This document shows positions 8,106 to 30,316 of a stretch of DNA of 58,860 nucleotides, in pieces. Positions within the stretch are counted from its first letter, which is position 1. Each line of letters opens with the position of its first letter. Made by a program: the position numbers and the translations under genes. The DNA is from a virus, in the IMG/VR virus record IMGVR_UViG_3300043137_000366. One strand, given 5' to 3'. The notes under the pieces are model-generated. The model worked only from the letters and a program-made list of their open reading frames with translations, ran no database searches and was not told the origin of the DNA.

Positions 8106-8227
8106 CTCAATCAACGGGAGCGCAGAAACCATCCAGTCGGCGACTAAGACCCGCAGGACAGTGGCGGTAGGTGAGAAACCGACCCCTCCCACCTTTCCCA
8201 AGCCCCGAGGCACTCCCCCTCTCCACC

Positions 8228-11285: not shown

Positions 11286-11510
11286 ATGAACCCCCTCCAA
11301 GAATGGACCTGCGGCAACACCCGCCCGCGCTGGTGGATGGGATACTCCCACTATTCCGCCGAGCGCGACCGATACCTCTACGTTGCGTTCCCGCTGAATC
11401 ACCTCGTCGCTGTGGCGTGGTGGGCGCACGACCTCTGGTGCCGGAAGCTACGGCATTCATCGTGGATTGATGGAGAGGTGGAGGAGAGAGCCGAAAGGAG
11501 GAGGCTGTGA
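11286..11510 (+). CDS. Hypothetical Trp-rich protein
   Basis: 74-aa ORF with an ATG start. Confidence 0.5.
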   Translation: MNPLQEWTCGNTRPRWWMGYSHYSAERDRYLYVAFPLNHLVAVAWWAHDLWCRKLRHSSWIDGEVEERAERRRL

Positions 11511-11953
11511 AAATCCTCTTCCTCGACGTCGATGGCGTCCTCAACCGCTGCGGGAAGTCCAATCAAGGGCTTGAAACAGACAAGTGCGACCTGCTGGCGG
11601 ATCTCTGCCGTCGCGTCGGGTGCAAGGTCGTGGTGTCCTCGACGTGGAGGAGATACCCTCACTTGATGGCGGATCGATTACTGCCAATGTTCCGCTCTCG
11701 CGGGATTGAGTGCGTGGGGCAGACTCCGATGCTGGAAAAGCCAAGCCCCGGCGGGCATGTCGTAGTCGCCGCCGCTCGCCACGAGGAAATCACCGCATGG
11801 CTCGCCGACCACGCCGAGGTTACGCAATACGCCATCGTGGATGATGACTCGGACGCCGACGACGGAACGGGCCGCTATGTGCGAACGGGGAGCTACGAGG
11901 GGATGACGGAGGCTCATGCCGCAAGAATCGAACAACTACTGAACCGACCATGA
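11507..11953 (+). CDS. HAD-superfamily phosphatase-like protein
   Basis: N-terminal ILFLDVDGVLN is the DxDx(T/V) HAD motif I. GTG start overlaps the upstream stop (GTGA). Confidence 0.65.
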   Translation: MKILFLDVDGVLNRCGKSNQGLETDKCDLLADLCRRVGCKVVVSSTWRRYPHLMADRLLPMFRSRGIECVGQTPMLEKPSPGGHVVVAAARHEEITAWLADHAEVTQYAIVDDDSDADDGTGRYVRTGSYEGMTEAHAARIEQLLNRP

Positions 11954-13534: not shown

Positions 13535-16500
13535 ATGCCAAACGGACCCTTTCGTCAAATGGATCAAGGCGTTTTTCGCCGAGGTGTCAGTGAGCAGGCA
13601 GTCGGTGCAGATCCGAGTCCGGAAAGCGGCACGGTATCGCCATTGACGCGCCCGCCGGCGTGGAAGTCGCTTGCTGGAAACTCGCATTTCCAGCGCCTCA
13701 ACGAGGAGGGGATTCGCGCCGAACAGACACGGGTTCGCCAGAGTCAGCAGGACTCGCCGCGCGCCTCATCCACCCGCCAGCCAAAGTGGAAATCCGGCAT
13801 TGGCATCCTTCAGCGTGAGTTCCCCGACGGCAGCGTTGAAGATCACGACCCGGAGACCCTGCTTGACGATCCGGAAGTCGGCCAGATGGCCGCGCAGTCG
13901 CTTTATCTGCGTGACGTCAAGGCCGCCCAGGATGACGAGGCTGCGACCCGCCTTCGGCTTGACGACCCAAACGACCAGCGCAAGCTCGCCGACAAGAAGC
14001 GCGAGGAAATTCTTTCCATGGGCTCTGGCTTGGCAGAGACCGACCCGGAGCACCAGCGCCTCAAGAAGCAGCTCGTCGACCACGACGCTCGCATCCAAGA
14101 GGAACAAGACCTCTACCAGAAACGAGTTCGCCTCCAGCAGATCAAGCAAGGCGGCGTTTCCGGATGGCTTCAGCAGCGCCAGCAGGCGAAGCCGATCGAG
14201 CAGAAGGCACAGGAAGCCTCCCAGCAGGCCCAGGCCAACACCGCCCGCATCATCGCTGCCGAAGAGTCCGCCGCGCTTGAAGAGGAGCAGTTGAGCCAGC
14301 AAGCCCAGCAGGGCGTGCGTGGCAATGACCTGCCCGCGTTCCAACAACGCCAGCAGGAACTTGCCGCCGCGAAGACACAGATCGCCCAGCAGAAGGCACA
14401 GCCGGACGCGCAACTTCAGCAAGTCGCCACCGAGGCCGCGGGCAAGGCGGAGGTGATGGACGGTAAGCCGAAGCTCCCCAAGGCGGAATCGCTTGCCGCC
14501 GCGCTTCAGTCGGCCAAGCTCTACGGCTCCGCGACTGCCGCAATGGGCAATTCCAGCGACCAAGGCATCCGCCGGGGCGCGAACGGGAATTGGGATTTGC
14601 CGCTGATGATGCAGCAGCAGGACAATCCGATCATCAATGTCATCGGGAATCTCGCTGTCACCGGTGGCCAGAAGCTCGGGGCGCGACTTGAGTCCGGCGG
14701 CGTCCAGAAGGATGCCATCCAATCCGTTTTCCACAAGTTCCAGCAGGACAACAATCTCTCCGACGAGGAGGTCGCAACCGCGTGGTCGGACCTTGGCGCT
14801 CAATCCCGGAAGTGGGACACGGAGGAAAAGACCCGTGTGCTGTCTGACGGGCGCATCCTCCTCAATCCGCTTTCCAGCTACATCCTCGACACCAAGCAGG
14901 CGGAAGCGGTCATTGATGAGTCCTCCGCCACGCCGGAGCAGAAGGCCTACGCCAAGACTACTATCCAGGGCGTCCAGAACAACGTCGCCGCCGGGAAGCT
15001 GGAAGCGTACGAGGCTGCCGCGCAAATGCTGAACTCGAAGGAGGGCCAATCGACCCTTTCCGTTGGCATTGGTAGCGGTGGTGGCAGAAGCGGGCTCAAA
15101 TCTCCCTCCGAATGGGCGTCCGAAACCGGGCGCAAGGACACGATCACCGCCAAGTTCATCGCCGACTACGAGCGCGAGGTCATCGACAAGCAGTCGGGGC
15201 CGACCAAATGGGCGCGAGGGATCGCGACTGACTGGATGATGGGGAATCTCCAGAACGCCAACATGGTCCTCGGGCTTGGCGGCATGGCTGGCAGTGAAAC
15301 CATGGCGGAAATGGCCGCTCAGGGCGCAGAGGCCAGCAACCTCATTGGCCAAGGCAAGGCTGACACCGGGATCACCGGGCAGATTGTCCAGCAGGTGCCA
15401 CAGATGGCCGCGCAGATCGTCACCGGTCGCCTTCTTGGTGGTGCGGCAGCCATCACCGGTAAGGCCGCGCCAACGATCGCCAACATCGGCACTGTCTCGA
15501 TGGCTGGCGCTCAGTCGGCAGGCATGACCTACGCCCAGCAACGGGCAGCGGGCGACACCCACGAGGTTGCGTTCGACAAGGCCTACAAATCCGGCGTCTC
15601 CACGGCGGTCATCACTGGCATCATGCAGAAAATGGGGGCTGGCGGCGTGGAAAAGGTCGCCGCTGGCCGCAGCGTGGCCGACGTCACCGTGCGCGACTTG
15701 CTGAAGTCGGCCACGAAAAAGGAACTTCTCGAGAACACCCGGCGCTTTGCCGCCGACGTCATCAAGGCCTCCGGTGGTGAGTTCACCGAAGAATTTGCCG
15801 ATCAGCTCGCGCAGTCATTCCTGACCGCCGACCCCGACACCAATTTGGCAAACGCCTGGGAGGAAGCCGTGCAAGCCGGAACCGTTGGCGGCATCATGGG
15901 CGGAGGAACAAAGGTCTTGGAGGCCTCGTTCGACAACCACCCTCAGACCCCTGACGCTCAAGCCGCGCGCGTCACTGCCGAAACCCTCAAGACCGACCCG
16001 ACCGCCGCGCCGGTCACGCCGGAGGAAATCCGTGCCTCTCAGGATGTTGTGGGCGACTACCTCACTCCCGGCGAAACCCCTGACGAGGCAGCCGCGCGCG
16101 TGGCCGACGGGGTGAAGATCCACCGCGAGATCAGCCAGTTCGAGGAGCAAGCTGCCTCTGCCGTCAGCGATGCGCTGGCCGCGCTCGATGAGGCCACCGC
16201 TACCGGCGACAAGGTCGCGATCGAAGCGGCCAAACAGAATCTCGACAAGGCCTCTGCTGAGGCCACCAAGCCCCCGCGTGCGCGTGCCGTCGCCAAGATC
16301 GCCCGCGGTGAATCGCTCGATCTCCTCACCCACACAGAACTTCAGTCCCTCGGAATCCAGCGCACTGGCAAGCCATCCGACGCGAAGACCCTGGAAGCAC
16401 AAGGGCTCACTGCCCCACTTGTCGACATTGGCCCCGATGGACGCCCGATCTTGCTCGACGAGGCGATCAAACAAGCCGGCACCGTTTCTCCGACCGCTGC

Positions 16501-19500
16501 CGCTCGCGTCAAACAAACCGAGACGGAAGCCCGCAAGGCTGCTGCCGTTCGCGCCTCGAAGCCATGGACCGTCACCGGAGCCGCCGGAACGTCGGTCAAG
16601 GTGCAGGCGAAGACCCGGGAGGAAGCGGAGCGCATGGCCGTTGGTATGCCTCAGTGGAAGCTCGGGGAGACGGTGAAGACTGCGATTGAGGGTGCAAACT
16701 CCCAATCTACTCCTAATTCCTCCCAAGTTAGTAGTTTAGAGCCCGTTGTTGTGAACGAAACGCCGGTTGCTGAACAACAAGCACCGTTGCCCGTCACGGA
16801 TGCACCACAAGCCACCGACCCCGCCACCCTCAAGCGCAAGATCACCAAAGCCATCGCTGAGCGCAAGAAGGGCACGACCATCCCGATCGACATTCATGAT
16901 GGTCTTCACGCCACGGCCACCGAAAAAGGCGTTCGCATCAACCCATCACGATTGGCCGATATTGCCGCCAAGGCTGGATTCAGCGAAGACCAAGCCGGAG
17001 AATGGGTCGCCAGCGTCATTGACGAGGAAATCCGCCACGTCGCCCACCTCCGCGCGGCCCGTGCTGTCTTTGAGCAAGCGGGAAGCCCTGGCGGAAACTT
17101 TGACGCTTGGCTCATAAGTCACTACGGCCAGATGTGGCAGGGAGAGTTTTCTGCCGAGCAAAAGTCAGGCATCGAGGCCCTCTATGGAACAGGCTTCGAA
17201 AATCTGAAGCCTCATGAGAAGGCCATGGAAGGCCTCCGCATGCTTTCCCAGCAGATCGCCACCGGAAGTCCAACCGAGTCCGCCCGCCTGTGGAAGAAGC
17301 TCAGCCAGTCGATCCGCGACCACATCACTGCCGCCCTCGCCTCCCTGAAGGCGATGACCACCAGCCTCTCCCCCGTCCTGAAGGCGGAAGTGGACGCGCT
17401 GGAAGCTTTCCTTTCCCAGTATGCCACCCAGCCTCCAGCTACTCCAAATCGCAGCGAAAAGCCCGCTCCCGTCAAAGCGCCTGTTCGAGATGGCGAGGCA
17501 GGAAAGCCCAGTCGAAAAACTGACGGCGATGGCGGGGCTGTCGTGGGAGGACGCGCAGACCTTCCATCGATTGGTGATCGAGTCAGGACCGCCTCCGGCG
17601 TCGAGGGTGTCTATGTCGCGATCTCGGACAACAAGGAGCAGGCGCTGATCAAGACCGACGCCGGGAACAAGTTGGTCCCGGTTGGGGAGGTGGAGGTTTT
17701 GAGGGCTCCGGTCGATGAGGCATCGGACGCTCCGAAGGCGGAGGCTACTGCCGCAATCGAGCGGGAAGTTCCCAAGGACGACAATGCCCCGCTGGAGCTT
17801 GGGATCTACACGATCGACGGCGTGCGTTTTGAGTGGAAGCAGAACAGCGCCGGATACCGGTCCATCAACGCCGTTGATCCTGGATTCTTCCCTGTCTCGA
17901 CCACCGGTTACCGGTCAGTCATGAGCGGCTTCAACAAAGACGCCCAGCTCACTGTCAGCGAATACCGGAAGATCGCCAAAGAAAGTGAGAAAAGTGTCAA
18001 AGAACAGTTCATTCGCGAAAAGAAAGCGATCCTTTCAGCGCTCAAATCTGGGAGGTTAGAATGGATTTCAGGACTCCGGCAAAAGTTTGATTTCAACAAA
18101 TTCAAAGATGCGGAAATCACTCGCTGGCCGGTGAAGCTGCGCGATGAAATGCTGTCTCTAACCAAGCAGTTTCTTGACGCTATTGACAACGGAACGATCA
18201 AGCCTGATGGGGAAAACAAAGCGTTTGCCGCCGAATTGAAAAAGGCTTTTACCGCGCTTATGGGGACGATGGCGCCGGCGGAGTCTGCGGAGTCTGCGTA
18301 TGAGAAGGCCATAAGACAATCCGAAGAGGATAGAAAAGCCCGCGAAGACTGGATGAATAGTATCGCTCGCGAAAACACCATCGAAGCAATTTCCCGGCGC
18401 GATGATGTCCCCGCAGATCGAGTTGATGATTTCAAATTGGAACTGCCAAAAGGATACAAGCGCAGGGGCAAGGAGTATGTTTGGGTAGGGGAAGACGCTA
18501 TCGATCGCGAACAGCAGCAAGCCTCACTTACCACTCTTCCAACCCGCACGCTGTCATTTGATGAGGCGCTGGAAGAACTCGCGCCTGGCACCGACCTCGC
18601 CGACGATCCGCTTCCCTACTACGACTCGATCGAGCACGACATTTGGAATGGCGTAGATCCGGAGTCGCAGAAAAAGACCCCGATCTTCAAGAACGACCAG
18701 CTTCAGGGAATTTCAAATCCGCAATGGATGACGCCTGAAGAGGCCGAAGCCAAGCTCGCCGAGTGGAAGGCCCAGGCCAAGGCTGACGGTGCCAACAAGG
18801 ACAATCAGAACTCCGGGAAATACGTGGTTTCCCTCTTTGACTCGTCGGGAGTGTGGTCACAGCCGTGGGTGGATGCCGGTTACACCGTCATCCGCTTCGA
18901 CCTAGATGAAGACAGTGACTCGTGGAAAGAGGATGTTCAGAATCTCACCCGCGAGTTCATGGAGGACAATGGGCTCGACATGGTGGACATCGTGCTCGCG
19001 CAGCCGCCATGCACCGACTTCTCACTCGCCGGCAACCGGTGGTTCCACGACCCAGCCAAGGCTGAGCAAAAAAAAGCCAGCCTCGAGAAAAACACGCGCC
19101 TTGTCGATCACACGCTTGATCTCATCGGCTACCTCCGCCCGCTGATCTGGGGGCTCGAAAACCCGATTGGCACGATCAAAAAGCACACCAAGGTGGCCGA
19201 GCCCCGGCTCGTCTTCGACCCGTTCATGTACGGGGCCGACTACACCAAGCGCACGCAGATATTCGGCACGTTCAACGAGCAACTCCCAGAAGCGATGGTT
19301 TACCCCGCCCAGGGTTCGCGCATCCACAAGCTCTCCGGCAGCACGAAAGCCGGGAAAACCGCCCGCTCACTCACTCCGGAGCAGTTTGCCTACGCCTTCT
19401 ACATGGCAAACCGCGACTACGGCCAGTGGTCGGCCAAGCGCGCAATCGCACAGGAAGACGCTCCCGATCCGGTCAAACAGCGTGATCTGTTCTCTCCGGG

Positions 19501-22500
19501 TAATCCTGAATCCACAAGTGCCAAAGAAATTTCGGAAGCCGAAGTGAGGACTGCAAGGGTTCAGTCGGCCATTGCTGAAATCGAAGCTGACATCCAGTCC
19601 GGAACTATCCCCGACACCGTTCGCAGCTTCTCCGAGCTTGCTGACTACGTGGACGCAAATGAATACGTCAACGACGCCAACCGCGAAGACCGTTTGATCG
19701 GACCGCTTGGAAAGCGCCTCGGATGGAAAGCGCAGGATTTCACCGAGTTCACAAACATCATCATTCGGGATGTGGATTCTTGGCTGGCGTCGAGGTCGCC
19801 CGCCCAACCTGAAACAAGCGCCCCCGCTATTTCAGAAACCACCCCGAAGAAGAAACAAAAGCCCCGCACGATCGATACGCCCGCCCGTCGCGAGGCCTAC
19901 CGGATTCTTGATGCGACCGATTCGAGGCTGGCTTCAATCGCCAAGATTGTCGGTCAGAGAATCGAAGCGCCACCCGCTGGCATGCTGAGGATCATCAAGA
20001 ACCGCAGCAAGTCCGGGAGGATCACCGAAAACCAGCGTGCGCTTCTGGAAAAGTGGAAGGGCTTCGATGCTTACATGCCAAAGAGCGCGTTCGGCGACGA
20101 CTTCAACGGCAAAGTCGCGAAGGAGATCCACGGCATGCTCTTCAGCCAGGATCGCACCAACACAAAGGTCGACGACTGGGCAAAGCAGCTCGGAGACGTG
20201 ACCAACGACGAGGCGATGATCCTCGTCATGAACGAGCTGAACCAGATCGCTCGTGGGCAGGCCGACAAGGCTCTGAATCCCAATCGCGAATGGTCGGAGG
20301 CTGAGATCGCCGCCGAACAAGGCAAACTCGCCACCCCGACGCAGACCGCCGCATTCAAGGACGCCAACGAATACGATTTTGGCCGCAACGAGGTTGAAGT
20401 AGCTGACCTGAAGGTCGGCGACGTCGTCACAATCGACCGCGAGCCAATGACCGTAGAAGCGGTTGAGGACGACGGCACCGTCATCCTGCAAGATGGATCA
20501 CGGTTTGGACGTCAGGTCTTGGAGTCAGGAGAGACGCTTTACGTTGAGGCTTCCGAGGCAATTATTGAGCCGGAGCAAATTGAGGCTGAAGCCGAATGGC
20601 TAGTTGATGCGTCTGAGGAAATGGGGTATGAGTCCATTGATGAGCATGCCGCCACAGACCCAGCCGGATTCGAGCAAATTGCCAGTGAAGCGGAAGCTCT
20701 CGGACAAGGAGATTCATCGACTGGCGTTGCTGGCAGCAGCCAGAAGGATTCAGGCGAAGCGACGGGCGGCGAAGTAGCCGCCGAGCCCGTTTACTTCTAC
20801 GTCAAAGGCGACCGCGCCGAATACACAGGTGAAGTCCGGCAAGTGGCTGGAGTGCCGTTCCATATCGGCATTCTGAGGGAAGGTGCTCGAATCGGCCAAG
20901 AGGTCGGAACCTACACGCCTCCCGGCGGAACCAATCCGCTCCAAGATCAGTCGGCCAAGGACTACCGCGACCAGCAGGAGCAATTCAAGAGGCTGAAAAC
21001 CCCCGCCTCCAAAATGGACATCCGCAACGCGGACTCCAAGGAGTTGTTCGCCGACGATGGCGGGTTCAAGCTCGGGCAGGATACCACCGTTGACGGCGAC
21101 AAGGTCGCTGCCGACCGGAAGGCCAAGGAGGACGCGAAAGCCGCCCAGGATGCAGCGCAGGGGGATATGTTTGGGGCTCCCGCCCTCACCGAAGCCGAGC
21201 AAGCCCTGAAGGATGCTTTCGGCGACATGGTGGATGGGCTGAATGCAGCGGACCTTTCCGACAGCGCGCCCACCTACTCCCAAGGCATCCCGCCCGAGAA
21301 AATCGGCCAATTCATCGCCGCCGCGCAGAAGCTGATCGCCGAAGGGGTGAAGACCCCCAACGGGCTCGCCGCCGCCCTCGACAAGATTTCCCCCAAGCTC
21401 CGCGCCTACTCAGACGCCGTGTGGAGCGCGTTTCGGATGGTCGACCCATCGTTGCAGGCTTCGCCGGATTGGGCTGGAGTTTATTCAAAAATCAACGAAC
21501 CTACCTCAAATGACGGAAATCCCGGCACCCCTCTGGAATCAGATCGCGGAAACACAGTCGCTGGAAACCCCGGCGGCGAAAGTGGCGTTTCGACTGGATC
21601 AGCAGCAGATCGCGGAGATGGAGGACGAGTGGGCGAGGCTGGAAGCGGCAGCCGGGACGGACGAAGCAATCGTGTCCAGCCTGATAACGTGCTTGCCGAT
21701 GCTGGCGGAGCGCAGCGCGATTCAGGAGTTCGTGAATCAGCATCCGAATCTGGCCAGCGCCTTGCCGGAAATGAATCGACCCGAGGAAGCGGCCGACCTG
21801 ATGCAAATGGAGTGGAGGCTTTCCAGCGCGGAGAGAACGACACTCACGACGGCCTTGTCATCGCCAATTCACCTGAACCGGTGGCATCAAGCGGCGTTGA
21901 AGGCATCCGCGATGCAGCCGACATAAGGAAATCCGCTCCCGCTCTTACGATTGACCAGGCGGGCGATGTCGCATTCATAGAGAAGCGCCTTCTGGAGTCC
22001 GGAAAAACTGGTGTCTTGCTCACCAACGGAACCGGCACCGGAAAAACGTTCTCCGGACTTGGTGCCATCAAGCGGGCGCTTGATCGTGGCGAAAAGCACA
22101 TCATCATCGTCGCGCCATCCGACAAGATCGGAAGCGATTGGGCCGCCGCCGCAAAGAAGCATTTCGGCATCCAGGACATCGCTCAGCTCAACGACACCAA
22201 AGACCGCGGCGATGGGAATCGGGTCGTCGTCACTACCTACGCCAATTTCGGACAGAACAACGAACTGGTCTCACGCCCGTGGGGGATGGTCGTTACCGAC
22301 GAGGCCCACTACCTCTCCTCCTCCAAAGATGGATCGCCGACGCTGGCGCTCGCAACGCTCCGGGGACTGACTTGGCATCCAACCGAGGGTGTGAGGAGCC
22401 GTCTTGCAATGGAAATGGCGGATGAGTTCGCCGAGATTGCCGCCATCCGCGCAAGCATTGATTCCAACAGTCGCATCATCAATGGTTCTGATACCATGGA

Positions 22501-25500
22501 CCAAGTGCGGCAGGCACTTCAGGAGGAAAATAGGACGCTTGATCGTCGCTACGGAGTCCTTGATTTGAAGATCAATACCCGCCGGGAGGAGCTTTCCAAG
22601 ATCGCCGCCGGGATGAAGGAATCCGACCGCCCGAAGGCGCTGTTCCTTTCCGCAACGCCCTTCGCCTATCACTTCAGTCTCGACTACGCTGAGAGCTACC
22701 TTTTCGACCACCCGAAGGAGAATGAAAAGACCGTCGGCGGCTACAATCATGCGTCCTCGCGCTCGAAGTTCTTCATGGAGAATTTCGGCTACCGGATGCG
22801 CTACGGGAAGTTGACCCAGCCCGAGAATGCAACTGCCGCCGGCATGCTGGAGCGAATGTTCTCCGAGCGCCTGAAAAAAGAGGGCGCGATGCGTGGTAGG
22901 GCGCTCGACGTGCCATTCGATTACAGTCGCGAGTTCGTGCTGACCGAAAGCGCCATCGGAGCCAAGGTGGATGAGGTTTTCAACCTGATCAGCAACGAGG
23001 ACAAGTTCCGCGTGCTTCGCGACACAGATGCAATGGAGATCGGTGATTACCTCGCCCGCCGCTACCTGCTGGAAGGCATCAAGGCCCGTGAGGCAGTGAG
23101 TCGGATCAAGAAGCATCAGGCGCTTGGCCGCAAGGTCGTCATCTTCCACGATTACAAGAAGGGCGGAGCGATCAACCCGCTTCGATTGAAGTCATTCAGT
23201 CCAGAAGCGAAACTGGCCTACGACGAGTTGCGTGACATGGTCCCCGGCTTTGACAGCTTGGTAAAACTGCTCGATGGGCTCAGGTCTCCAATCGATGTCA
23301 TCGCTTCTGCATTTCCTGATGCCGGAATCTTCAACGGAGACGTGTCGGCCAAGAACCGCAGGAAAATTGTCGAGGACTTCAACACGTCCGGCGGAAAGAT
23401 GGACATCGTTCTTGTCCAGCGGGCCAGCGGCAAGGAAGGGATTTCCCTTCACGACATCGACGGTAAACACCAGCGCGTGTTCATGGATCTTGGTATCCCT
23501 GGTCGACCGACCGATGCCATCCAGAGCGAAGGCCGAATTTTCCGCCATGGGGTCAAGAGTAATGCCGTTCTCGAATATCTCACCACCGGAACCGACTTTG
23601 AGCGATGGACCTTTGCCCAGACGATCGCCAACCGCGCCAGCACCGCCGAAAACCTCGCGATGGGCGAAAAAGCCCGCGCCCTACTTCAGGCGTTCTCGAC
23701 TGGCTACAACGATGCACAGCCATCCACCCCTAGCGCCGAGCAGGGAAGCGGCGGAAAGCGTGCCGACCGCGCTCGTGACAATGGCAACCCCTTCGACAAC
23801 GCTGTCGCGCTCTACTACACCAACGAGAAAAAAACCAATCGGACCAAGGCGGCGGAGGGGATCGACTATTTCGCAACACCGGAGCCGCTTGGATTCAAGA
23901 TGGTCGAGTGGGCAAACGTGCGGCCTGGAGAAAAAATCCTAGAGCCTAGCGGTGGCCACGGCGCGATCGCCCGTTTCTTCCCTGACTCAACGATCCGCCA
24001 CGCTGTCGAGCCATCGTTCGAGCTTGCCGGACGCCTCGCGCTCAACTCGCCGGACACAAAAATCCACCAGACCACGTTCGAGAACTACGACATCGTCAAC
24101 AAGTTCGACGCGATCGTGATGAATCCGCCGTTCGGCACCGCAGGGAAAACGGCGATGGATCACCTCGAAAAGGCATTCAGGCACCTCAAGGACGGCGGGC
24201 GCATCGTTGCCTTAATCCCGAACGGGAGCTCAATGGGGAAACGCTTCGACAAGTGGTATGAGGAGACCGAGGGCGTGTTCATGGCCGGAGAGGTCATGCT
24301 GCCATCCGTGACGTTTGAGCGAGCCGGAACGTCGGTCTCCGCTCGCGTCGTCATCCTCGACAAAGTGAAGGCCGATGATGCTCGTCAGCCGGCATATCGC
24401 GACTTCACCGACGCCGGGAACATCAAGGATCTGTTCGCCAAACTTAAGGACTCCACAATCCCCGAGCGCCCGACTCCATCGGTTCAGAAATCTCCGTCCG
24501 AAATGATGGCAGAACTGATCAATGGCGGCCGCGGCGCGGTCTTGCCGGTCGCAACGGAAAACGCCGGGGATTTCTCTCCGATGGAGTTCACCCACACCCG
24601 GGACGGACATCAGGTGTTCGTTGCCAAGATCAATCGGAAACTTGATGACGTCGAATACTCCGCTGCGAAGGCGATGGCGAGACGCTACAACGGGAACTAC
24701 AGTTCATTCCGTGGTGCTGGCGCGATTCCCGGCTTCCATTTTAAGAGCGCGGATGACCGCGATGGTTTCATTGGGACGATGAGCGAGCGCGGCCAATCCC
24801 TCCAAGCCGCCGACCTCTCCGACAACGAAACCCTCCCCAACATCGCCGACCTCCGTGAAAAAGGCCGCGCGACGATGGCAGGCCCGGAAGTCGAGGCCGA
24901 AATCCGCGCCCAACAAGCCGCGTTCAAGCAGCAGGGCAAGGTCGCTGGTCGTCCGGACCTCGCGAACATTTCCGAGGACGAGGACGTTCGCGCTGAAATG
25001 GACGTCACCGATGAAATGCGGAAATGGGTCGCCGAGCGTCAGGAAAAGCAGCAGTGGGAGAACGAGGGCCGCCGACTCGTCGAAACCGACGCCGATGCGG
25101 TCGAGGAGAAGATTCTGGAGGCCGCCTACACCCGTGGCGGACAGAAGTTCACCGCCGCCGATGTGGTGGCTGGTCGCATCCTCGCCGAGAAGCGCACGAA
25201 GGAGGCCGGGAATGACAAGCAGAAGCATGCGGACGCCGCTGTGCTTCGCCATGGCTACCGCGAGGTTCGCTCCGAGCAGGCCCGCGTGCTTGCCGCTGGC
25301 ACCGACCCATTCAAGACCCCGGAAGAGCGCCATCGTGATTTCATCGCCGGTGCGCTCTACGAACTTCCGCAATCTCTCCTCAACGACATCGAGGGTCGCA
25401 GCCAGTCGCCCGCCCAGGCCCGTGCCGCCATCCGCAAAGCGGTCATTGAACGCCTGACCAAGATCGAGAAGGCGCTGAAGAAGATGGGCGTGACGCTGGA

Positions 25501-28123
25501 CGAAATCACCAGCGGCCAAGTCTCGCTTTCTCTCGCCAAGGAGAAGGTGATGAAAGACGCCATCGCCAAGCTCACCCAAGCGGAGAAGCTGGCCGTGGCT
25601 GCCATCCAGAAAGGTGGGGCACTGGCCGACATCCGCAAGCTCACCGGACTGAGCGATGCGAAGATTCAAGAACTCAACGCCCGCATCCGCCGCGAGCTTC
25701 GCGACAAGATCAAGGCCAAGGTGCAGGCCGGAATGAAGCTCGAAGACCTCAAGGGTAAGCTCGACGGGCTCCGTGCCGCCTCCATGCTTTCCGATGAGGA
25801 TGTGGAGGCTGAAATCGAGCGTATCCTGGCGGTTGGCTTTGGCATGCCCGCCGAAGTGCCGACGGTTAGAAAGTCGGTGAAGCGTGCCAAACCCAAGACC
25901 GTCGCTCCGATTGACGCCAACTGGTCCCGCCCCGAGTTCACCGACGGGCTCGCCTCTTACACCTTCAACGACACCGACCGAGCGGAGATCATGCGCAAGG
26001 TCGCGACGCTCCGGGATCTGGCCGGCGTGGAGGGCAAGGTTGCCACACTCACCGGCGACAAGAAGGCCAAGGGCGTGCGCCTGATCGCCGAGATCAACAG
26101 CATCCTCTCGAAATACGACACGTCGGTGGAAACGATCCTCCGCGAAGGCAAGGACATTGCCGACTATCGATTCGACATCAGCGACCGCAACCACGTTATG
26201 GTCGTTGCCCGCACGATCAATGCCATCGATGCTGACCTCCTCGACAAGGGCTCAGAGTATTACTACGCCAGCATCCTTTCCGGCCTTCAGACGATGATGG
26301 TTAACGCCTCCACGATCATCCCGAGCGTGTTGGACATGACGATTGGCCGTGGCTTCGAGATGGCGACCAACCTGCTTTTCCGCGACCCGATGGCCGCCAG
26401 CCTTGGCGAGATCAAATACATCCTGAAAGCCGCTGGTCCGTTCATGGCTCGCGCCTGGACGAACGCCGCTGCCGCCTGGGGAACGGAAATGCCGTTCTTC
26501 GAGGAGGACGTGCTTGGAAAGGCTCCCGACCTCGACGCCATCTTTGAAAGCCGCGGCATCTACCGCACCGGTTCGATTGGTGGCAACCTCGGGCGCATCA
26601 TCCGCACTCCCACCCGCCTGCTTCTCGCCACCGACGAGTTTGTCCGGACCGCGAACGCCTGCATGGAAGTCGGCGCAATGGCCTACCGCCTCGCTCGCCG
26701 CGAAGGTTTGACACCCGGCACGCCGAAGTTCGACACCTTCCTAAAACAACAGGTGAATCTCCCCGGTTCGCCCGCGTGGCAGCTCGCTGCAAAGAAAGCA
26801 GCCGACCGGATCTTTGCCGCTCCGCTGCCGGGTCAGACCGACATCACCACTGGGAAGGCAGTGCCGATCCGTGACATCGGCGACGTGGTTGGCGCGGGCG
26901 CGGCCCAGATGGGTAAATTCCTCAACCAGAAGACCGACAGCCTTGCAGCCAAGTCGACCCTCCTTGCGCTTCGCCTCCTCTTCTTCCCGTTCCAGAAGGT
27001 GCCTTTCAACATCGTGCGTCAGGCCGCCCGCCGGACGCTGAACCCGATCAGCCTCGTGGACATCGGCGTGCTCATCGGTCGCAACCTCCGCGTGATCGAC
27101 GGCAAATGGACGCTCAACGCCAAGGGTGGAAAAGCGGAGATCGCCGAACGACTCGCACAGCAGGCACAAGGCGCACTCCTCGTCATGCTGCTCGCTGCCT
27201 CCGGCGCGGGCGAGGGTGACGATGACGACTTGGACAAGCCGATCCTCATCACCGGATCCCGCCCGTATGGCGAGACAAAGAAGGGCGACCGCGAGCTTGG
27301 CTACCGCCTCGGGCTCGGCCCCTACGAAATTTCGATGAAGATGCCTGGCGGAAAGCGCGTGGGATTCTCCTACGGACGCCTTGAGCCCGCCGCCACCGTC
27401 CTGGGTGCCACGGTCGACACCATGCGCGAACTCGCCATGTATCGCCAAGGCAAGCAGTCGCTTGGCGAGGCTGGCGGCAAGATCATTGGCGCTCTTCGCT
27501 CGCAACTCACCGAAAAGACGTTCCTGCGCGGCTTCTCCGACGCGCAGCAGATCGCCTCCGGCGACTCCGATCTCTCTCGCTTCACTGCCGAACGGTTGGC
27601 CGTCGTCATCCCGAACATCATCCGCCAGCCGCTTCGCGAGGCCGACCCGTATTTCCGCGAGCGCAAGGATGGCTTCGTTGATAACCTCTCCGCCGCGCTC
27701 TGGCCTTACGGCCAAGGCGAAATCAAGCGCGACCTTTACGGCGACCCGCTGGAGAAGAAAGGCAACTCAGCGTCCCGCATCATCGACTTCACCGACTTTG
27801 GCGGGGATCAGGCGCAACCGCTCGATGAAATGCTCTGGCGCTATCGCCAGACGCATCCAAGCGACGCCTACGCCCCGCAGTCGCCGACCGCCAACTACAC
27901 CGACCCGGTCACGAAAAAGCCCGCGACGATGACCCCGGCGCAGTTGGCGAAATACAAGGAAATCTCCGGTCAAAAGATTCTGGCGTTGACGAAACGCGAG
28001 AGCTTCAACCTCAAGAACCCGACTGAATCCGACATCAAGCGTTTCAAGGCCGTCGTCGACGATGGCCGCGAGTTCGCTCGCCTCATGCTCTTCAAATCCC
28101 CCGCCTGGCGGAACCTCAAGTAA
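13535..28123 (+). CDS. Giant polyvalent protein (4,862 aa): C5-MTase-like + SNF2 ATPase + N6-MTase + long uncharacterised regions
   Basis: One uninterrupted ORF. C5-MTase motifs: SLFDSSG, PPCTDFS, ENP. SNF2 motifs: GTGTGKT, DEAH, SEGRIFRHG. N6-MTase motifs: EPSGGHG, NPPF. Ends 3 nt before the portal gene. Confidence 0.9.
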   Translation: MPNGPFRQMDQGVFRRGVSEQAVGADPSPESGTVSPLTRPPAWKSLAGNSHFQRLNEEGIRAEQTRVRQSQQDSPRASSTRQPKWKSGIGILQREFPDGSVEDHDPETLLDDPEVGQMAAQSLYLRDVKAAQDDEAATRLRLDDPNDQRKLADKKREEILSMGSGLAETDPEHQRLKKQLVDHDARIQEEQDLYQKRVRLQQIKQGGVSGWLQQRQQAKPIEQKAQEASQQAQANTARIIAAEESAALEEEQLSQQAQQGVRGNDLPAFQQRQQELAAAKTQIAQQKAQPDAQLQQVATEAAGKAEVMDGKPKLPKAESLAAALQSAKLYGSATAAMGNSSDQGIRRGANGNWDLPLMMQQQDNPIINVIGNLAVTGGQKLGARLESGGVQKDAIQSVFHKFQQDNNLSDEEVATAWSDLGAQSRKWDTEEKTRVLSDGRILLNPLSSYILDTKQAEAVIDESSATPEQKAYAKTTIQGVQNNVAAGKLEAYEAAAQMLNSKEGQSTLSVGIGSGGGRSGLKSPSEWASETGRKDTITAKFIADYEREVIDKQSGPTKWARGIATDWMMGNLQNANMVLGLGGMAGSETMAEMAAQGAEASNLIGQGKADTGITGQIVQQVPQMAAQIVTGRLLGGAAAITGKAAPTIANIGTVSMAGAQSAGMTYAQQRAAGDTHEVAFDKAYKSGVSTAVITGIMQKMGAGGVEKVAAGRSVADVTVRDLLKSATKKELLENTRRFAADVIKASGGEFTEEFADQLAQSFLTADPDTNLANAWEEAVQAGTVGGIMGGGTKVLEASFDNHPQTPDAQAARVTAETLKTDPTAAPVTPEEIRASQDVVGDYLTPGETPDEAAARVADGVKIHREISQFEEQAASAVSDALAALDEATATGDKVAIEAAKQNLDKASAEATKPPRARAVAKIARGESLDLLTHTELQSLGIQRTGKPSDAKTLEAQGLTAPLVDIGPDGRPILLDEAIKQAGTVSPTAAARVKQTETEARKAAAVRASKPWTVTGAAGTSVKVQAKTREEAERMAVGMPQWKLGETVKTAIEGANSQSTPNSSQVSSLEPVVVNETPVAEQQAPLPVTDAPQATDPATLKRKITKAIAERKKGTTIPIDIHDGLHATATEKGVRINPSRLADIAAKAGFSEDQAGEWVASVIDEEIRHVAHLRAARAVFEQAGSPGGNFDAWLISHYGQMWQGEFSAEQKSGIEALYGTGFENLKPHEKAMEGLRMLSQQIATGSPTESARLWKKLSQSIRDHITAALASLKAMTTSLSPVLKAEVDALEAFLSQYATQPPATPNRSEKPAPVKAPVRDGEAGKPSRKTDGDGGAVVGGRADLPSIGDRVRTASGVEGVYVAISDNKEQALIKTDAGNKLVPVGEVEVLRAPVDEASDAPKAEATAAIEREVPKDDNAPLELGIYTIDGVRFEWKQNSAGYRSINAVDPGFFPVSTTGYRSVMSGFNKDAQLTVSEYRKIAKESEKSVKEQFIREKKAILSALKSGRLEWISGLRQKFDFNKFKDAEITRWPVKLRDEMLSLTKQFLDAIDNGTIKPDGENKAFAAELKKAFTALMGTMAPAESAESAYEKAIRQSEEDRKAREDWMNSIARENTIEAISRRDDVPADRVDDFKLELPKGYKRRGKEYVWVGEDAIDREQQQASLTTLPTRTLSFDEALEELAPGTDLADDPLPYYDSIEHDIWNGVDPESQKKTPIFKNDQLQGISNPQWMTPEEAEAKLAEWKAQAKADGANKDNQNSGKYVVSLFDSSGVWSQPWVDAGYTVIRFDLDEDSDSWKEDVQNLTREFMEDNGLDMVDIVLAQPPCTDFSLAGNRWFHDPAKAEQKKASLEKNTRLVDHTLDLIGYLRPLIWGLENPIGTIKKHTKVAEPRLVFDPFMYGADYTKRTQIFGTFNEQLPEAMVYPAQGSRIHKLSGSTKAGKTARSLTPEQFAYAFYMANRDYGQWSAKRAIAQEDAPDPVKQRDLFSPGNPESTSAKEISEAEVRTARVQSAIAEIEADIQSGTIPDTVRSFSELADYVDANEYVNDANREDRLIGPLGKRLGWKAQDFTEFTNIIIRDVDSWLASRSPAQPETSAPAISETTPKKKQKPRTIDTPARREAYRILDATDSRLASIAKIVGQRIEAPPAGMLRIIKNRSKSGRITENQRALLEKWKGFDAYMPKSAFGDDFNGKVAKEIHGMLFSQDRTNTKVDDWAKQLGDVTNDEAMILVMNELNQIARGQADKALNPNREWSEAEIAAEQGKLATPTQTAAFKDANEYDFGRNEVEVADLKVGDVVTIDREPMTVEAVEDDGTVILQDGSRFGRQVLESGETLYVEASEAIIEPEQIEAEAEWLVDASEEMGYESIDEHAATDPAGFEQIASEAEALGQGDSSTGVAGSSQKDSGEATGGEVAAEPVYFYVKGDRAEYTGEVRQVAGVPFHIGILREGARIGQEVGTYTPPGGTNPLQDQSAKDYRDQQEQFKRLKTPASKMDIRNADSKELFADDGGFKLGQDTTVDGDKVAADRKAKEDAKAAQDAAQGDMFGAPALTEAEQALKDAFGDMVDGLNAADLSDSAPTYSQGIPPEKIGQFIAAAQKLIAEGVKTPNGLAAALDKISPKLRAYSDAVWSAFRMVDPSLQASPDWAGVYSKINEPTSNDGNPGTPLESDRGNTVAGNPGGESGVSTGSAADRGDGGRVGEAGSGSRDGRSNRVQPDNVLADAGGAQRDSGVRESASESGQRLAGNESTRGSGRPDANGVEAFQRGENDTHDGLVIANSPEPVASSGVEGIRDAADIRKSAPALTIDQAGDVAFIEKRLLESGKTGVLLTNGTGTGKTFSGLGAIKRALDRGEKHIIIVAPSDKIGSDWAAAAKKHFGIQDIAQLNDTKDRGDGNRVVVTTYANFGQNNELVSRPWGMVVTDEAHYLSSSKDGSPTLALATLRGLTWHPTEGVRSRLAMEMADEFAEIAAIRASIDSNSRIINGSDTMDQVRQALQEENRTLDRRYGVLDLKINTRREELSKIAAGMKESDRPKALFLSATPFAYHFSLDYAESYLFDHPKENEKTVGGYNHASSRSKFFMENFGYRMRYGKLTQPENATAAGMLERMFSERLKKEGAMRGRALDVPFDYSREFVLTESAIGAKVDEVFNLISNEDKFRVLRDTDAMEIGDYLARRYLLEGIKAREAVSRIKKHQALGRKVVIFHDYKKGGAINPLRLKSFSPEAKLAYDELRDMVPGFDSLVKLLDGLRSPIDVIASAFPDAGIFNGDVSAKNRRKIVEDFNTSGGKMDIVLVQRASGKEGISLHDIDGKHQRVFMDLGIPGRPTDAIQSEGRIFRHGVKSNAVLEYLTTGTDFERWTFAQTIANRASTAENLAMGEKARALLQAFSTGYNDAQPSTPSAEQGSGGKRADRARDNGNPFDNAVALYYTNEKKTNRTKAAEGIDYFATPEPLGFKMVEWANVRPGEKILEPSGGHGAIARFFPDSTIRHAVEPSFELAGRLALNSPDTKIHQTTFENYDIVNKFDAIVMNPPFGTAGKTAMDHLEKAFRHLKDGGRIVALIPNGSSMGKRFDKWYEETEGVFMAGEVMLPSVTFERAGTSVSARVVILDKVKADDARQPAYRDFTDAGNIKDLFAKLKDSTIPERPTPSVQKSPSEMMAELINGGRGAVLPVATENAGDFSPMEFTHTRDGHQVFVAKINRKLDDVEYSAAKAMARRYNGNYSSFRGAGAIPGFHFKSADDRDGFIGTMSERGQSLQAADLSDNETLPNIADLREKGRATMAGPEVEAEIRAQQAAFKQQGKVAGRPDLANISEDEDVRAEMDVTDEMRKWVAERQEKQQWENEGRRLVETDADAVEEKILEAAYTRGGQKFTAADVVAGRILAEKRTKEAGNDKQKHADAAVLRHGYREVRSEQARVLAAGTDPFKTPEERHRDFIAGALYELPQSLLNDIEGRSQSPAQARAAIRKAVIERLTKIEKALKKMGVTLDEITSGQVSLSLAKEKVMKDAIAKLTQAEKLAVAAIQKGGALADIRKLTGLSDAKIQELNARIRRELRDKIKAKVQAGMKLEDLKGKLDGLRAASMLSDEDVEAEIERILAVGFGMPAEVPTVRKSVKRAKPKTVAPIDANWSRPEFTDGLASYTFNDTDRAEIMRKVATLRDLAGVEGKVATLTGDKKAKGVRLIAEINSILSKYDTSVETILREGKDIADYRFDISDRNHVMVVARTINAIDADLLDKGSEYYYASILSGLQTMMVNASTIIPSVLDMTIGRGFEMATNLLFRDPMAASLGEIKYILKAAGPFMARAWTNAAAAWGTEMPFFEEDVLGKAPDLDAIFESRGIYRTGSIGGNLGRIIRTPTRLLLATDEFVRTANACMEVGAMAYRLARREGLTPGTPKFDTFLKQQVNLPGSPAWQLAAKKAADRIFAAPLPGQTDITTGKAVPIRDIGDVVGAGAAQMGKFLNQKTDSLAAKSTLLALRLLFFPFQKVPFNIVRQAARRTLNPISLVDIGVLIGRNLRVIDGKWTLNAKGGKAEIAERLAQQAQGALLVMLLAASGAGEGDDDDLDKPILITGSRPYGETKKGDRELGYRLGLGPYEISMKMPGGKRVGFSYGRLEPAATVLGATVDTMRELAMYRQGKQSLGEAGGKIIGALRSQLTEKTFLRGFSDAQQIASGDSDLSRFTAERLAVVIPNIIRQPLREADPYFRERKDGFVDNLSAALWPYGQGEIKRDLYGDPLEKKGNSASRIIDFTDFGGDQAQPLDEMLWRYRQTHPSDAYAPQSPTANYTDPVTKKPATMTPAQLAKYKEISGQKILALTKRESFNLKNPTESDIKRFKAVVDDGREFARLMLFKSPAWRNLK
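27984..28000 (+). promoter_or_regulatory. Dispersed motif copy CGTTGACGAAACGCGAG (intragenic)
   Basis: Lies within the last 140 nt of the giant ORF and 127 nt upstream of the portal ATG. Confidence 0.6.
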
Positions 28124-28126: not shown

Positions 28127-30316
28127 ATGAACGAACAACTCGAACGTGTGATCGACCAGCCCGAGATCGGGATTGACCAGATCGACCCCTACGGCCCACG
28201 CATGCCGTTTCCGACCTCCTACGTGCTCACCCGCGAGCAGGAGGATGAATTGGTCGACCATGCGATGAAGCGCCTGGAGCAACTGGAGGACGAAACCGGG
28301 CGGAAGCGCACCGGGAAAGGCGACTGGTGGATGATGGGAGATCAGGGCATCGAGAGCAACGACCCGCTCAACACCAAGCGGGCATCGCGCACGTTCTTTG
28401 GCAAGCGTCGCCTCTACGACCTCGTCTATGACAACGACGTCGATCACCGCGCCGTCATCCTCGGTGGCATCTTTGCGGAGTCGAATCTTGTCGTGCCGTT
28501 GGCCCGCCGGATCGCCCGCCAGATGACTGCCCGCGCCACCAACTACTTTTTCAGCACCGACCCATGGTTCGCCGTTTATCCAGTCGGCGAGAACGATCGC
28601 GTGCGTGCCGACAAGGCTGGCCGATACACCCGCTGGAAGATGGAGCAGGCGCACATGAAGCGTGCCCTGGAGCTCGGCATCGAGCGGGCGTTTGTCGTCG
28701 GCGAGTCGGTCATCAAGACCTCCTGGAAATCTGACCAACAGGTTTACGTAACGCGAGCGACCGTCCTGGTGGATGCGCAAGGCAAGGACATCATCGCTGC
28801 CGATGGCGACTACATCCTGCCGACCGATCTCTGGATCCTGCCAATGGTGACGGACCCGGTGACGGGCGAGCCGGTGCAAGACCAGATCGCCGTGCTGAAG
28901 CGTGACGGACAGACCCAGCAGCCGGCGGAAATGCTTTGGGCGCCGAAGCTCGTCACCCGCCGCATCACCCACTACAACGGACCCGAGGCCAAAGTGGTTC
29001 ACTTCCTCGACTTCCTTTGCCCTCTAGAGGCTGCGAGCATCCAAGAGGCCGACTGTGTGTGCCACCTCTACGACATGCCAGTCATGGATCTGGCGGACCA
29101 GTGGAAGAAGCAAGAGGAGGGCATGGCCGCTGAGGAGGGGATGGAAAGCACCCGCAAGGCGATCAACTTGATTCGTGAGCTTTCCAACGCTACCGGCGAG
29201 CCCAAGAACGCCCAGACCGCCTACGACCCAAGCACGACCGGCGCGGACTCCCGTCAGGACCGCACCGACCCGGTGGTTTCCATCGTGGAGTTCCACCTTC
29301 GCTATGATGCCGACGGTGATGGCATGCTCGAAGACGTGATGCTGGTGGTCGACCGGAACAGCCGCACCCCGATCTTCTACGACTACGAGGCCAACGTCAC
29401 CCCCGACGGCAAGCGCCCGTTCTCGGTGGTGCGTGTCAACGAGCGCCCAGGCCGCTGGTATGGCATCGGTGCCTTGGAAATGTTCGAGACGACCCAGCAA
29501 ATCGTCGACCTCACGGTGAACCGCTGGAACTTCAGCCAGTCGCGCGCGTCCCGGGTCGATTTCTGGAGCCCGCACAACACGCTGGAAGGCCGCTCGAACC
29601 CGCACCTCACGCTCAACGGCGGGATGACCTACACCCCGCTTGGCAACAAGAAGGCGGCGGACTGCTTGGAGTCGGTCTATCTGAGCAACAACAAGGACGT
29701 CGAGCTCAAGGAGATGATCGACTTCTTCATGCAGCTCGCCATGAACGAATCCGGCGTGATGAACGCCAATGACACTGGCGCGGCCGGACTCGACACAGCG
29801 AAGCTGGCGACCGGCATCCGCAACATCGAGAAGAACGGACAAGAGATGTTCTCGCTCTACCTCGGCCACTTGGAGCCAGGGATTGCGAACGCACTTCAGA
29901 AGATGGTCATGCTGCTTTTCGCCAACATGGACCAGATGGAGGTCTATCGCTACTTCGAGGAGGGCGAGCCCGGAGGCGAAGGAGCGGAGGGCATGCAGGC
30001 GATCGACCCGGGCGAAATCTCCGACATGGAGATCGACACTCAGATCCTTCTCTCCCGCTACCGCGGTGAGCAGGTGTTGGAGGGATCGATGCGAGCGGCT
30101 GAGTTGGTGGAAAAATTCTACAACCTCCCCTACCCCGTCCAAATGACGACCGCGCAACTTTACCGCGACATGCTGAAAGCCCTTCAGGTGCAGAACGCGG
30201 ACAAGATCATCGTGCCAATCGACCTCGGCGGCATGGGCGGAGGCCCCGGCCAGCAACCGGGTGCATTGTCTGCCGCCGTCGCTCCGAAACCACGTCAAGC
30301 CACTCCAAACCTGTGA
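28127..30316 (+). CDS. Portal protein, putative
   Basis: 729 aa. Called from its size and its position upstream of scaffold and capsid. No motif-level proof. Confidence 0.6.
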   Translation: MNEQLERVIDQPEIGIDQIDPYGPRMPFPTSYVLTREQEDELVDHAMKRLEQLEDETGRKRTGKGDWWMMGDQGIESNDPLNTKRASRTFFGKRRLYDLVYDNDVDHRAVILGGIFAESNLVVPLARRIARQMTARATNYFFSTDPWFAVYPVGENDRVRADKAGRYTRWKMEQAHMKRALELGIERAFVVGESVIKTSWKSDQQVYVTRATVLVDAQGKDIIAADGDYILPTDLWILPMVTDPVTGEPVQDQIAVLKRDGQTQQPAEMLWAPKLVTRRITHYNGPEAKVVHFLDFLCPLEAASIQEADCVCHLYDMPVMDLADQWKKQEEGMAAEEGMESTRKAINLIRELSNATGEPKNAQTAYDPSTTGADSRQDRTDPVVSIVEFHLRYDADGDGMLEDVMLVVDRNSRTPIFYDYEANVTPDGKRPFSVVRVNERPGRWYGIGALEMFETTQQIVDLTVNRWNFSQSRASRVDFWSPHNTLEGRSNPHLTLNGGMTYTPLGNKKAADCLESVYLSNNKDVELKEMIDFFMQLAMNESGVMNANDTGAAGLDTAKLATGIRNIEKNGQEMFSLYLGHLEPGIANALQKMVMLLFANMDQMEVYRYFEEGEPGGEGAEGMQAIDPGEISDMEIDTQILLSRYRGEQVLEGSMRAAELVEKFYNLPYPVQMTTAQLYRDMLKALQVQNADKIIVPIDLGGMGGGPGQQPGALSAAVAPKPRQATPNL
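28743..28757 (+). promoter_or_regulatory. Dispersed motif copy TTTACGTAACGCGAG (intragenic)
   Basis: Lies within the portal coding sequence (encodes VYVTRA). Confidence 0.5.

Follow-up and report, generated by a model that had tools for sequence, protein, structure and literature searches.

What does a phage do with a gene of 4,862 codons placed directly in front of its portal gene? The question is raised by the IMG/VR record IMGVR_UViG_3300043137_000366, a viral stretch of 58,860 nt (hereafter the window), in which one open reading frame (ORF) occupies positions 13535 to 28123. We propose that the product of this ORF (hereafter the giant) is probably a packaged and ejected polyvalent protein, in which an anchor of the type of internal virion protein D (hereafter IVP-D) delivers exchangeable anti-restriction cargo; the specific anti-restriction role is the part of this reading towards which we lean with less assurance. 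The proposal is carried by a C-terminal module that, judging from profile searches and a predicted fold, is very probably homologous to IVP-D of T7-like phages. The features needed here are the following:

13535..28123, + strand: giant ORF of 4,862 amino acids (aa), from the ORF listing and its translation; an alternative ATG at 13559 gives the 4,854-aa protein P0010
24797..28120, + strand: constant C-terminal module, aa 3755-4862, almost all alpha-helical, the proposed virion-incorporation/ejection anchor
26072..27754, + strand: module core, aa ~4180-4740, which appears homologous to aa ~600-1190 of IVP-D of T7-like phages

The family to which this module belongs is easy to miss, because a word-index homolog search gave only 6 relatives (six matches for the C-terminal part, and one for the N-terminal part), and single-sequence scans for related loci found none. 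Aligning the 6 relatives brought up 60 viral contigs and 4 genome loci. More than 20 of these loci keep the last ~1,100 residues, with a portal gene of the SU10 type directly downstream; among them the core formed by a helicase and a DNA methyltransferase (MTase) is limited to the two Verrucomicrobia loci. The six word-index matches wrongly suggested rarity until an exhaustive HMMER search of 1.84 billion representatives (clusters at 50% identity) found the module in 7,522 proteins, 1,282 of them at E<=1e-30. Among the best ~150 of the 7,522 matches the module lies nearly always at the extreme C-terminus, and the best 146 have a median length of 2,504 aa, with 39 proteins of at least 4,000 aa and a longest one of 6,807 aa. 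As a side observation, k-mer prefilters seem to under-detect fast-diverging helical ejection proteins badly (6 versus 7,522 relatives here).

Several kinds of comparison pointed to the same group of proteins. The family phrog_6651, 'internal virion protein', was matched by 34 of 40 module sequences; in tblastn, two family members matched genes of marine T7-like phages named 'internal virion protein (D)', and the IVP-D of ProddE was matched in BLASTP by 122 of 153 family members. A shallow profile built from the window and 4 close relatives detected HTVC025P gp39 (5e-20), ProddE gp34 (5e-18) and Syn5 gp45 (2e-5), and a deeper profile detected the same three proteins at 1.4e-36, 1.9e-44 and 7.8e-27, respectively. 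Each of them is the product of the third and largest gene of its IVP cluster, the position of T7 gene 16, and Syn5 gp43/44/45 are described as the capsid core, the counterpart of T7 gp14/15/16 (PMC5850374).

The predicted fold agrees with the profiles. An AlphaFold2 (AF2) model of aa 3755-4862, made from a 40-sequence alignment, consists of nearly all helices with a predicted local distance difference test score (pLDDT) of 82.7 and a predicted template modelling score (pTM) of 0.71, a model from 7 sequences (pLDDT 58) having been too poor to use. A PDB profile search returned nothing for the module and no solved structure resembles it (Foldseek best E 0.047); among predicted viral structures (BFVD), 37 match the model at E<=1e-3. 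A probability of 1.0 was reached by the internal virion proteins of pelagiphage EXVC018P and cyanophages S-RIP1 and S-CBP2, and also by the last segments of proteins named 'ART-PolyVal-like' and 'Large polyvalent protein associated domain'; terminal segments of 'PolyVal ADP-ribosyltransferase' and 'MuF C-terminal domain' proteins are likewise among the fold matches. An earlier note, made from the window's letters alone, had suggested that this product may take the place of internal or ejected core proteins, a guess that the homology to IVP-D now supports directly; it had also recommended domain-wise HMM and structure searches. Of the whole giant, the module alone is kept in thousands of proteins whose cargo is unrelated, and this speaks for a role in delivery.

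When 153 family proteins were mapped onto the window protein, the constant segments were aa 1-~220, ~800-1400, ~2500-2700 and 3750-4862, and both enzyme blocks fell in variable stretches. A natural comparison is offered by a sibling phage, L079, with a contig of 59,015 bp and the gene order of the window. The two share 85-94% nucleotide identity over 9.3 kb in all, the conserved parts being aa 1-289, aa 995-1391 (in two pieces), aa 2489-2650, and a last stretch that starts at aa 3758 and takes in the portal and capsid genes as well; no similarity was found in the three blocks that separate these conserved segments. From the N-terminus to the module, the parts of the giant are:

13535..14401, + strand: constant N-terminal segment, aa 1-289, Q/A-rich, in ~23 family giants and with 87% nucleotide identity in L079
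15260..15652, + strand: Gly/Ala-rich segment, aa ~576-706, inside variable block A (aa 290-994)
16517..17707, + strand: constant scaffold block, aa 995-1391, with a conserved 'DExIRH' region, in 19-24 family giants and with 85% nucleotide identity in L079
18797..19435, + strand: compact C5-cytosine-MTase-like domain (cargo 1), aa 1755-1967, phrog_757 at 1e-38
20999..21484, + strand: constant linker domain, aa 2489-2650, in ~23 family giants and with 91-94% nucleotide identity in L079
21932..23554, + strand: superfamily 2 (SF2) helicase (cargo 2a), aa ~2800-3340, ResIII and Helicase_C
23852..24394, + strand: N6-adenine DNA MTase (cargo 2b), aa ~3440-3620, with NPPF at aa 3530, a homolog of the P1 DarB MTase

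The three enzymatic domains announced in the earlier note were all found, and their catalytic motifs are intact: PCTDFS (aa 1825) and ENP (aa 1875) in the C5-MTase-like domain, which sits in variable block B (aa 1392-2488), GTGKT, DEAH (aa 2922) and QSEGRIFR (aa 3330) in the helicase, and NPPF in the N6-MTase. In PDB searches TaqI was the best sequence match of the N6-MTase, and a weak one, with no match for the helicase-MTase core and none for the C5-like domain. Pfam searches of ten segments at E<=1 gave nothing credible outside the enzyme domains (the scaffold block at aa 995-1391 belongs to no Pfam family), NCBIfam gave nothing above its cut-off for the giant, and a BLAST comparison of the giant with itself, aimed at repeated small domains such as the putative beta-barrel-like inserts of the earlier note, revealed no internal repeats. 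The linker domain is interrupted by further insertions in other giants.

The domain order first proposed stands for the Q-rich N-terminus (Q content 18% in aa 201-400), the Gly/Ala segment and the enzymes, but the C-terminal region measures ~3.3 kb and not ~1.9 kb. Similarly, the segment that had been called Gly/Ala-rich and hydrophobic is indeed rich in these residues (G+A = 30% in aa 601-800) but only mildly hydrophobic, with a 19-residue Kyte-Doolittle maximum of 1.09 and no classical transmembrane helix; the hydrophobic windows of the C-terminal region are also modest (1.38 and 1.25). We observed separately that a profile of aa 330-820 (nt 14522-15994) weakly matches aa 536-608 of the giant of Klebsiella phage ZX1 (domain E 5e-4) and, at a domain E of 0.05, aa 470-602 of Bcep22 gp75. 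This likeness of the Gly/Ala region may reflect a shared membrane-interacting element or may be merely compositional. A candidate 'fused ejectosome' was considered and rejected, as jackhmmer profiles of aa 1-330, 330-820, 800-1420 and 2480-2700 gave nothing significant against IVP-B/C.

The exchange of cargo is most plainly seen in the sibling. Its giant, of 5,174 aa, carries a Strawberry-notch (Sno) helicase in place of the ResIII helicase and N6-MTase, and is without the C5-MTase-like domain. The enzyme blocks of the window have GC contents of 0.565 (block B) and 0.581, versus 0.62-0.64 in the constant parts. Other family giants carry InPase, RadC-JAB, Sno helicase, Eco57I MTase or DUF3293 domains. 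True DarB-type cores, colinear with Bcep22 gp75, were found in 41 family proteins, a core of the type seen in Serratia phage Parlo and in ZX1 in 28, and cargo in common with the phi24B giant in 6. In the metagenomic proteins P0074 (3,764 aa), P0016, P0018 and P0029 a true DarB-type core is joined to the same IVP-D-type module at the C-terminus; this core, MTase then helicase, has ~30% identity to Bcep22 gp75 across ~1,900 aa. DarB-type and Parlo-type cores thus sit on the same module, and are therefore alternative cargoes on one anchor.

Taken together, these observations allow a wider reading, which we offer as a tentative possibility. The IVP-D-type module may be a very large and essentially undescribed delivery platform, which in the portal-adjacent lineage (including phages of Verrucomicrobia) would have become a single-polypeptide carrier. 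The scaffold segments at aa 1-289, 995-1391 and 2489-2650 might then serve as fixed junctions for the exchange of anti-defence cassettes between siblings by homologous recombination, and cassettes of the DarB, Parlo and phi24B types might also be traded between this anchor and those of Bcep22- and phi24B-type giants, which look unrelated to it. If this is true, cassette exchange would be a phage counterpart of effector swapping in polymorphic toxins or in the type VI secretion system (T6SS).

How could such a protein work? During head assembly, the C-terminal module would place a few copies in the capsid at or above the portal. Upon infection, the giant would be threaded unfolded through the portal and the tail, ahead of the DNA or with it, as N4 gp50 and T7 gp16 are, and the module would help to form a trans-envelope ejection conduit. 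The enzyme domains would refold in the cytoplasm, where the helicase could translocate on the entering genome and the two methyltransferases could modify the DNA in cis or shield it from host restriction, ahead of all phage gene expression.

Some points weigh against this reading and should be set beside it. We infer the presence of the giant in the virion and its ejection, and the anti-restriction role is read from domain types and from P1 DarB genetics, even though the domain order is unlike that of DarB; another possible target of the methyltransferases would be progeny DNA, late in infection. The window's own copy of the module, when used alone, stays below the PHROG threshold, and the IVP-Ds that were matched, all from marine or environmental T7-like phages, owe their names largely to synteny. 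T7 gp16 itself was not detected by hmmsearch, PDB profile or fold search (hhalign probability 0.2%), and the module profiles detected neither N4 gp50 nor the C-terminus of Bcep22 gp75, for which hhalign gave a probability of at most 0.4%. The giant gene lies between terminase and portal rather than in the canonical IVP place after the tail-tube genes, and an IVP-B/C partner was not identified. The module profile likewise gave no significant match to P1 DarB, Parlo gp81, the ZX1 giant, the phi24B giant or T7 gp14/15. Since the profiles miss N4 gp50, Bcep22 gp75 and the phi24B giant, the anchor would therefore belong to the marine T7-like branch of IVP-D.

Alternatively, the giant could stay out of the virion and serve in the cytoplasm as a late enzyme for methylating or remodelling replicating or progeny DNA before packaging, its helical C-terminus being a scaffold unrelated to ejection. 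The presence of two DNA methyltransferases and a helicase would suit such an enzyme, in Bcep22 too a small DNA MTase gene lies between terminase and portal, and the packaging of the window giant is inferred. However, the module has virion internal proteins as its probable homologs and is kept with cargo as unrelated as InPase, RadC, ADP-ribosyltransferase (ART) and nuclease domains, and analogous giants have been found in virions, so that we regard a late enzyme as unlikely.

An ejected carrier could also be a true DarB-family antirestriction protein, that is, an ortholog of P1 DarB and Bcep22 gp75 with Dar-type packaging, the extra sequence being lineage-specific decoration. The analogy with P1 DarB had been drawn in the earlier note from the position of the gene, and that part stands, since P1 darB also adjoins the P1 portal gene. 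The MTase homology stands as well: aa 3446-3618 align with DarB 91-282 at 26% identity (1.5e-7), and NPPF at aa 3530 agrees with the (N/D)PP(F/Y) feature of the DarB-type (EcoKI/TaqI-like) MTase. As in P1 DarB, Bcep22 gp75 and JC1 gp69, an N6-MTase of the same family and an SF2 helicase are found in one giant, and the nearest deposited relatives are annotated 'DarB-like antirestriction'. Beyond this no shared part was found. In the DarB pair, which is packaged in the virion and protects incoming DNA in cis from type I restriction, the MTase is fused at its C-terminus to an SF2 helicase (Iyer 2017, PMC5512222), and DarB and Bcep22 gp75 are mutually colinear in this order, MTase then helicase, whereas the window has helicase then MTase. 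The window helicase gave no BLASTP or phmmer alignment with the SWI2/SNF2-type helicase of DarB, and in Pfam it scored 22.8 bits for SNF2-rel_dom (cut-off 24.9) versus 41.7 bits for ResIII. Bcep22 gp75 aligns with the window protein across 165 aa only, and no Pfam LPD domain was detected in the whole protein or in segments at E<=1, including LPD36, which lies N-terminal to the MTase and whose model was not confirmed to be in the Pfam copy used. The anchor also differs, and true DarB-type cores sit on this same module in P0074, P0016 and P0018. Because the order is inverted and only the MTase aligns, we do not consider the giant a DarB family member: on its predicted architecture it fails the definition of that family, though it is built of DarB-like parts, and orthology with DarB is improbable.

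The genomic surroundings bear on a further alternative, in which the giant is not an ejected carrier of effectors but a structural component of the tail, either tape-measure-like or a central fibre. The neighbouring features are:

7755-8108, + strand: full-length transfer-messenger RNA (tmRNA) gene, Rfam RF00023, 109.5 bits versus a gathering score of 47, model positions 1-374 of 374
8947..10719, + strand: probable large terminase (TerL), phrog_24361, marking where the giant's late operon begins
11507-11953, + strand: HAD_SAK_2 protein (1.1e-26), between terminase and giant, kept in the identical contigs L077 and L078
12494..13528, + strand: 344-aa protein directly upstream of the giant, with its stop 6 nt before the giant's ATG
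28127..30316, + strand: portal of the SU10 type, Pfam SU10_portal 4e-23 and phrog_1216, 4 nt after the giant's stop
32142-33608: capsid protein, phrog_334, downstream of the portal
38225-41931, + strand: end of the structural module, with a 635-aa MGH1-like glycoside hydrolase protein (1.9e-9), a small alpha/beta-hydrolase-like protein and a cupin-like protein
55482-56822, + strand: integrase-like gene, phrog_1 at 2e-22, without a Pfam match

A tail component would be in keeping with the great length of the giant, its largely helical C-terminus, its place in the late operon and the lack of another long structural gene: the giant aside, the + strand ORFs from TerL to ~42 kb are all of at most 729 aa, and no tape-measure, tube or sheath family was matched (Pfam and PHROGs) among the structural-module ORFs scanned, as the earlier note had remarked. 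However, the giant has three enzyme domains with intact active-site motifs, the cargo is exchangeable, the relatives of the module are internal and not tail proteins, and the other signatures are of the podophage type, so that this reading is very unlikely. Those signatures, namely the SU10-type portal, a homolog of the podophage fiber GP4 gp80 downstream of the portal (1.7e-58) and the IVP-D-type module, bear out the podovirus-like virion that had been proposed. The position directly upstream of the portal was also described correctly, and the adjacency is kept in more than 20 related loci.

That several genes were fused by misassembly or missing stops has nothing in its favour except the unusual length and is a negligible possibility, already refuted as far as assemblies can show. 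The 4,862-residue gene is confirmed as real, and it is the single uninterrupted ORF that had been described, a quarter of the genome in size: the 4,862 codons open with ATG and end with one terminal stop, the chance of so many stop-free codons at the window's base composition is ~1e-69, the coding periodicity is uniform (GC1>GC2<GC3 in 10 of 10 blocks of 1.5 kb), and the ORF makes up 24.8% of 58,736 unique nt. The suspicion of an assembly artefact, which the earlier note wished to see checked, is excluded because identical copies exist elsewhere, at least 13 related loci have long open frames and full-length relatives are known. Across 20,565 nt the window has 100% identity with loci in JGI 3300036944 and in Logan SRR11805346, which are independent assemblies of what is perhaps one sample, whose reads are not certainly independent; P0010, a public protein that corresponds to the giant product from residue 9, is on record on 4 contigs. 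In the related loci the frames run open over at least 4,000 codons, as far as the retrieved DNA reaches, and the full-length relatives, of 4,339-6,807 aa, include WP_200272050.1 (4,339 aa) from an isolate genome, that of Luteolibacter pohnpeiensis KCTC 22041 (scaffold_25), with a module that shows 70% identity in tblastn to that of the window. Public gene calls start the giant at ATG 13559, 8 codons after 13535, and there is no obvious Shine-Dalgarno sequence ahead of either ATG; the stop of the upstream gene 6 nt before 13535 suggests translational coupling.

The window ends share an exact 124-nt direct terminal repeat (1-124 = 58737-58860), and the assembly is therefore circularly closed, with 58,736 unique bases. 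The minus strand holds the replication module. The phage is supported as a temperate podophage, and its host is probably a verrucomicrobium: the nearest cellular loci are those of Luteolibacter pohnpeiensis and of Verrucomicrobiae metagenome-assembled genomes (MAGs), and one related prophage locus lies inside a 442-kb Verrucomicrobiae contig, which together with the integrase-like gene points to a temperate life, as previously noted, and to a probable verrucomicrobial host. The edge of the sibling locus (1-248) carries a serine recombinase (Resolvase, PF00239), so the siblings may integrate by different enzymes. The sibling's counterpart of the 344-aa upstream protein has 496 aa and is partly mosaic. 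The domain name HAD_SAK_2 stands for 'HAD domain in Swiss Army Knife RNA repair proteins'. We also noted that the hydrolase-type genes at the end of the structural module may provide tail-associated polysaccharide-degrading functions. The tmRNA gene, whose tag peptide is given by ARAGORN as GTNTARSRTEIGELALPA*, lies in a region (7071-8217) with 89% nucleotide identity to the sibling, and it could be a functional phage-borne copy or could be tied to integration at the host ssrA gene.

Deposited phages offer little to compare with outside the enzymes. Among 50,697 records, megablast of the ORF found no match, nor did tblastn against deposited phages with aa 1-1750, aa 4131-4862 or the portal; only ~1,040 of the 4,862 residues, corresponding to the enzyme core, align with any deposited phage protein. 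The principle of a giant ejected protein with intracellular domains is already published (Hardies 2016, Iyer 2017, Bcep22 gp75, N4 gp50). What is new is this architecture, an anchor that comes from the IVP-D branch of marine T7-like phages, the conserved site directly upstream of the portal gene, the core with its inverted order (helicase then MTase) together with a second MTase of the C5 type, the size of the uncultured family, and the natural cargo-swap pair.

These points matter since the entry of polyvalent anti-defence proteins into virions and cells has so far mostly been inferred from MuF and portal fusions, P1 DarB and N4 gp50. With a large set of polyvalent proteins tied to a single C-terminal anchor that can be recognised, their packaging and delivery gain a concrete mechanism that is open to test. 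The pair of ~90% identical phages that differ only in their cargo blocks is a ready-made experiment on the role of the cargo and on cassette exchange, and the module profile offers a practical way to search metagenomes for thousands of injected effector domains.

Comparison with known systems places the giant among several groups without making it a simple member of any. The closest cargo is that of Serratia phage Parlo and Klebsiella phage ZX1 (Lastavirus), which also have ~60-kb podophage genomes: the helicase-then-N6-MTase core (aa 2641-3672) is colinear with Parlo gp81 (3,764 aa) and the ZX1 giant (3,867 aa) over ~1,040 aa, at 40-43% identity. This core also matches Pseudomonas phage Skulduggery, Ruegeria phage 45A6 and some Vibrio phages, and phrog_10691 at E=0. 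Outside the core, however, nothing aligns; the Parlo and ZX1 giants are without the C-terminal module, and their gene closes the tail module, ahead of the lysis genes, whereas that of the window lies before the portal. They are labelled 'DarB-like antirestriction' or 'PLxRFG' proteins (phrog_10691, phrog_5143), and the window giant has no PL.RFG motif and no NCBIfam match. For the core common to Parlo and Lastavirus phages the label 'DarB-like' is loose in the same way as for the window, and should be corrected.

In size, the best parallels are the giant DarB-like virion proteins of JC1 and Bcep22, which take up 22% of ~61-kb podophage genomes (PMC9144972), the share being 22% for JC1 gp69 as compared with 25% for the window giant; those of Bcep22-like phages have been detected in virions by mass spectrometry (PMC9144972). 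With such giants known, and with module proteins reaching 6,807 aa, the claim that the size and domain combination are exceptional for a phage of 59 kb is not supported.

The giant also resembles the polyvalent proteins, which unite many effector domains in one chain, are encoded alongside portal-terminase genes and are predicted to be packaged and injected; they were defined in Iyer 2017 (PMC5512222), where MuF and portal fusions are discussed as the link to packaging and the terms 'internal virion protein' and 'ejection protein' occur 0 times. It combines at least two effector domains in one polypeptide (C5-MTase-like, SF2 helicase, N6-MTase), its gene lies between TerL (8947-10719) and the portal (28127-30316), its relatives carry InPase, RadC, Sno helicase, Eco57I MTase and ART domains, and its cargo is swapped in L079. 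It differs from them in that no Pfam LPD domain was detected in it.

The module, finally, sets the giant beside the internal virion proteins. It resembles Syn5 gp45, HTVC025P gp39 and ProddE gp34 in being helical, in belonging to a podophage, and in a module that profiles, BLASTP via relatives and the predicted fold indicate to be homologous; as in T7 gp16, with its N-terminal transglycosylase, the enzyme part is N-terminal to the helical part. In contrast to IVP-D of T7-like phages, the giant is 3.5-4 times longer and carries DNA enzymes that would be directed to the cytoplasm, and its gene lies between terminase and portal, whereas T7-like IVP-D genes follow the tail-tube genes and IVP-B/C. 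Homologs of IVP-D were described in Hardies 2016 as proteins that 'variably host ... domains destined for the cytoplasm' (PMC4819975), with N4 gp50 virion RNA polymerase (vRNAP), Pseudomonas phage H66 gp60 (methylase site), BcepMigl gp69 and VT2-Sakai orf71 as examples (PMC4819975). N4 gp50, of 3,500 aa and in ~4 copies, is stored as 'beads on a string' and refolds in the cytoplasm (PMC13434306), and phi24B gp47 has been proposed as an ejection protein. The window giant would join this extended family as a giant ejected protein with an IVP-D-like part joined to intracellular domains, from which it differs by its gene position and by an anchor that lies outside the F116/Bcep22 and N4 branches.

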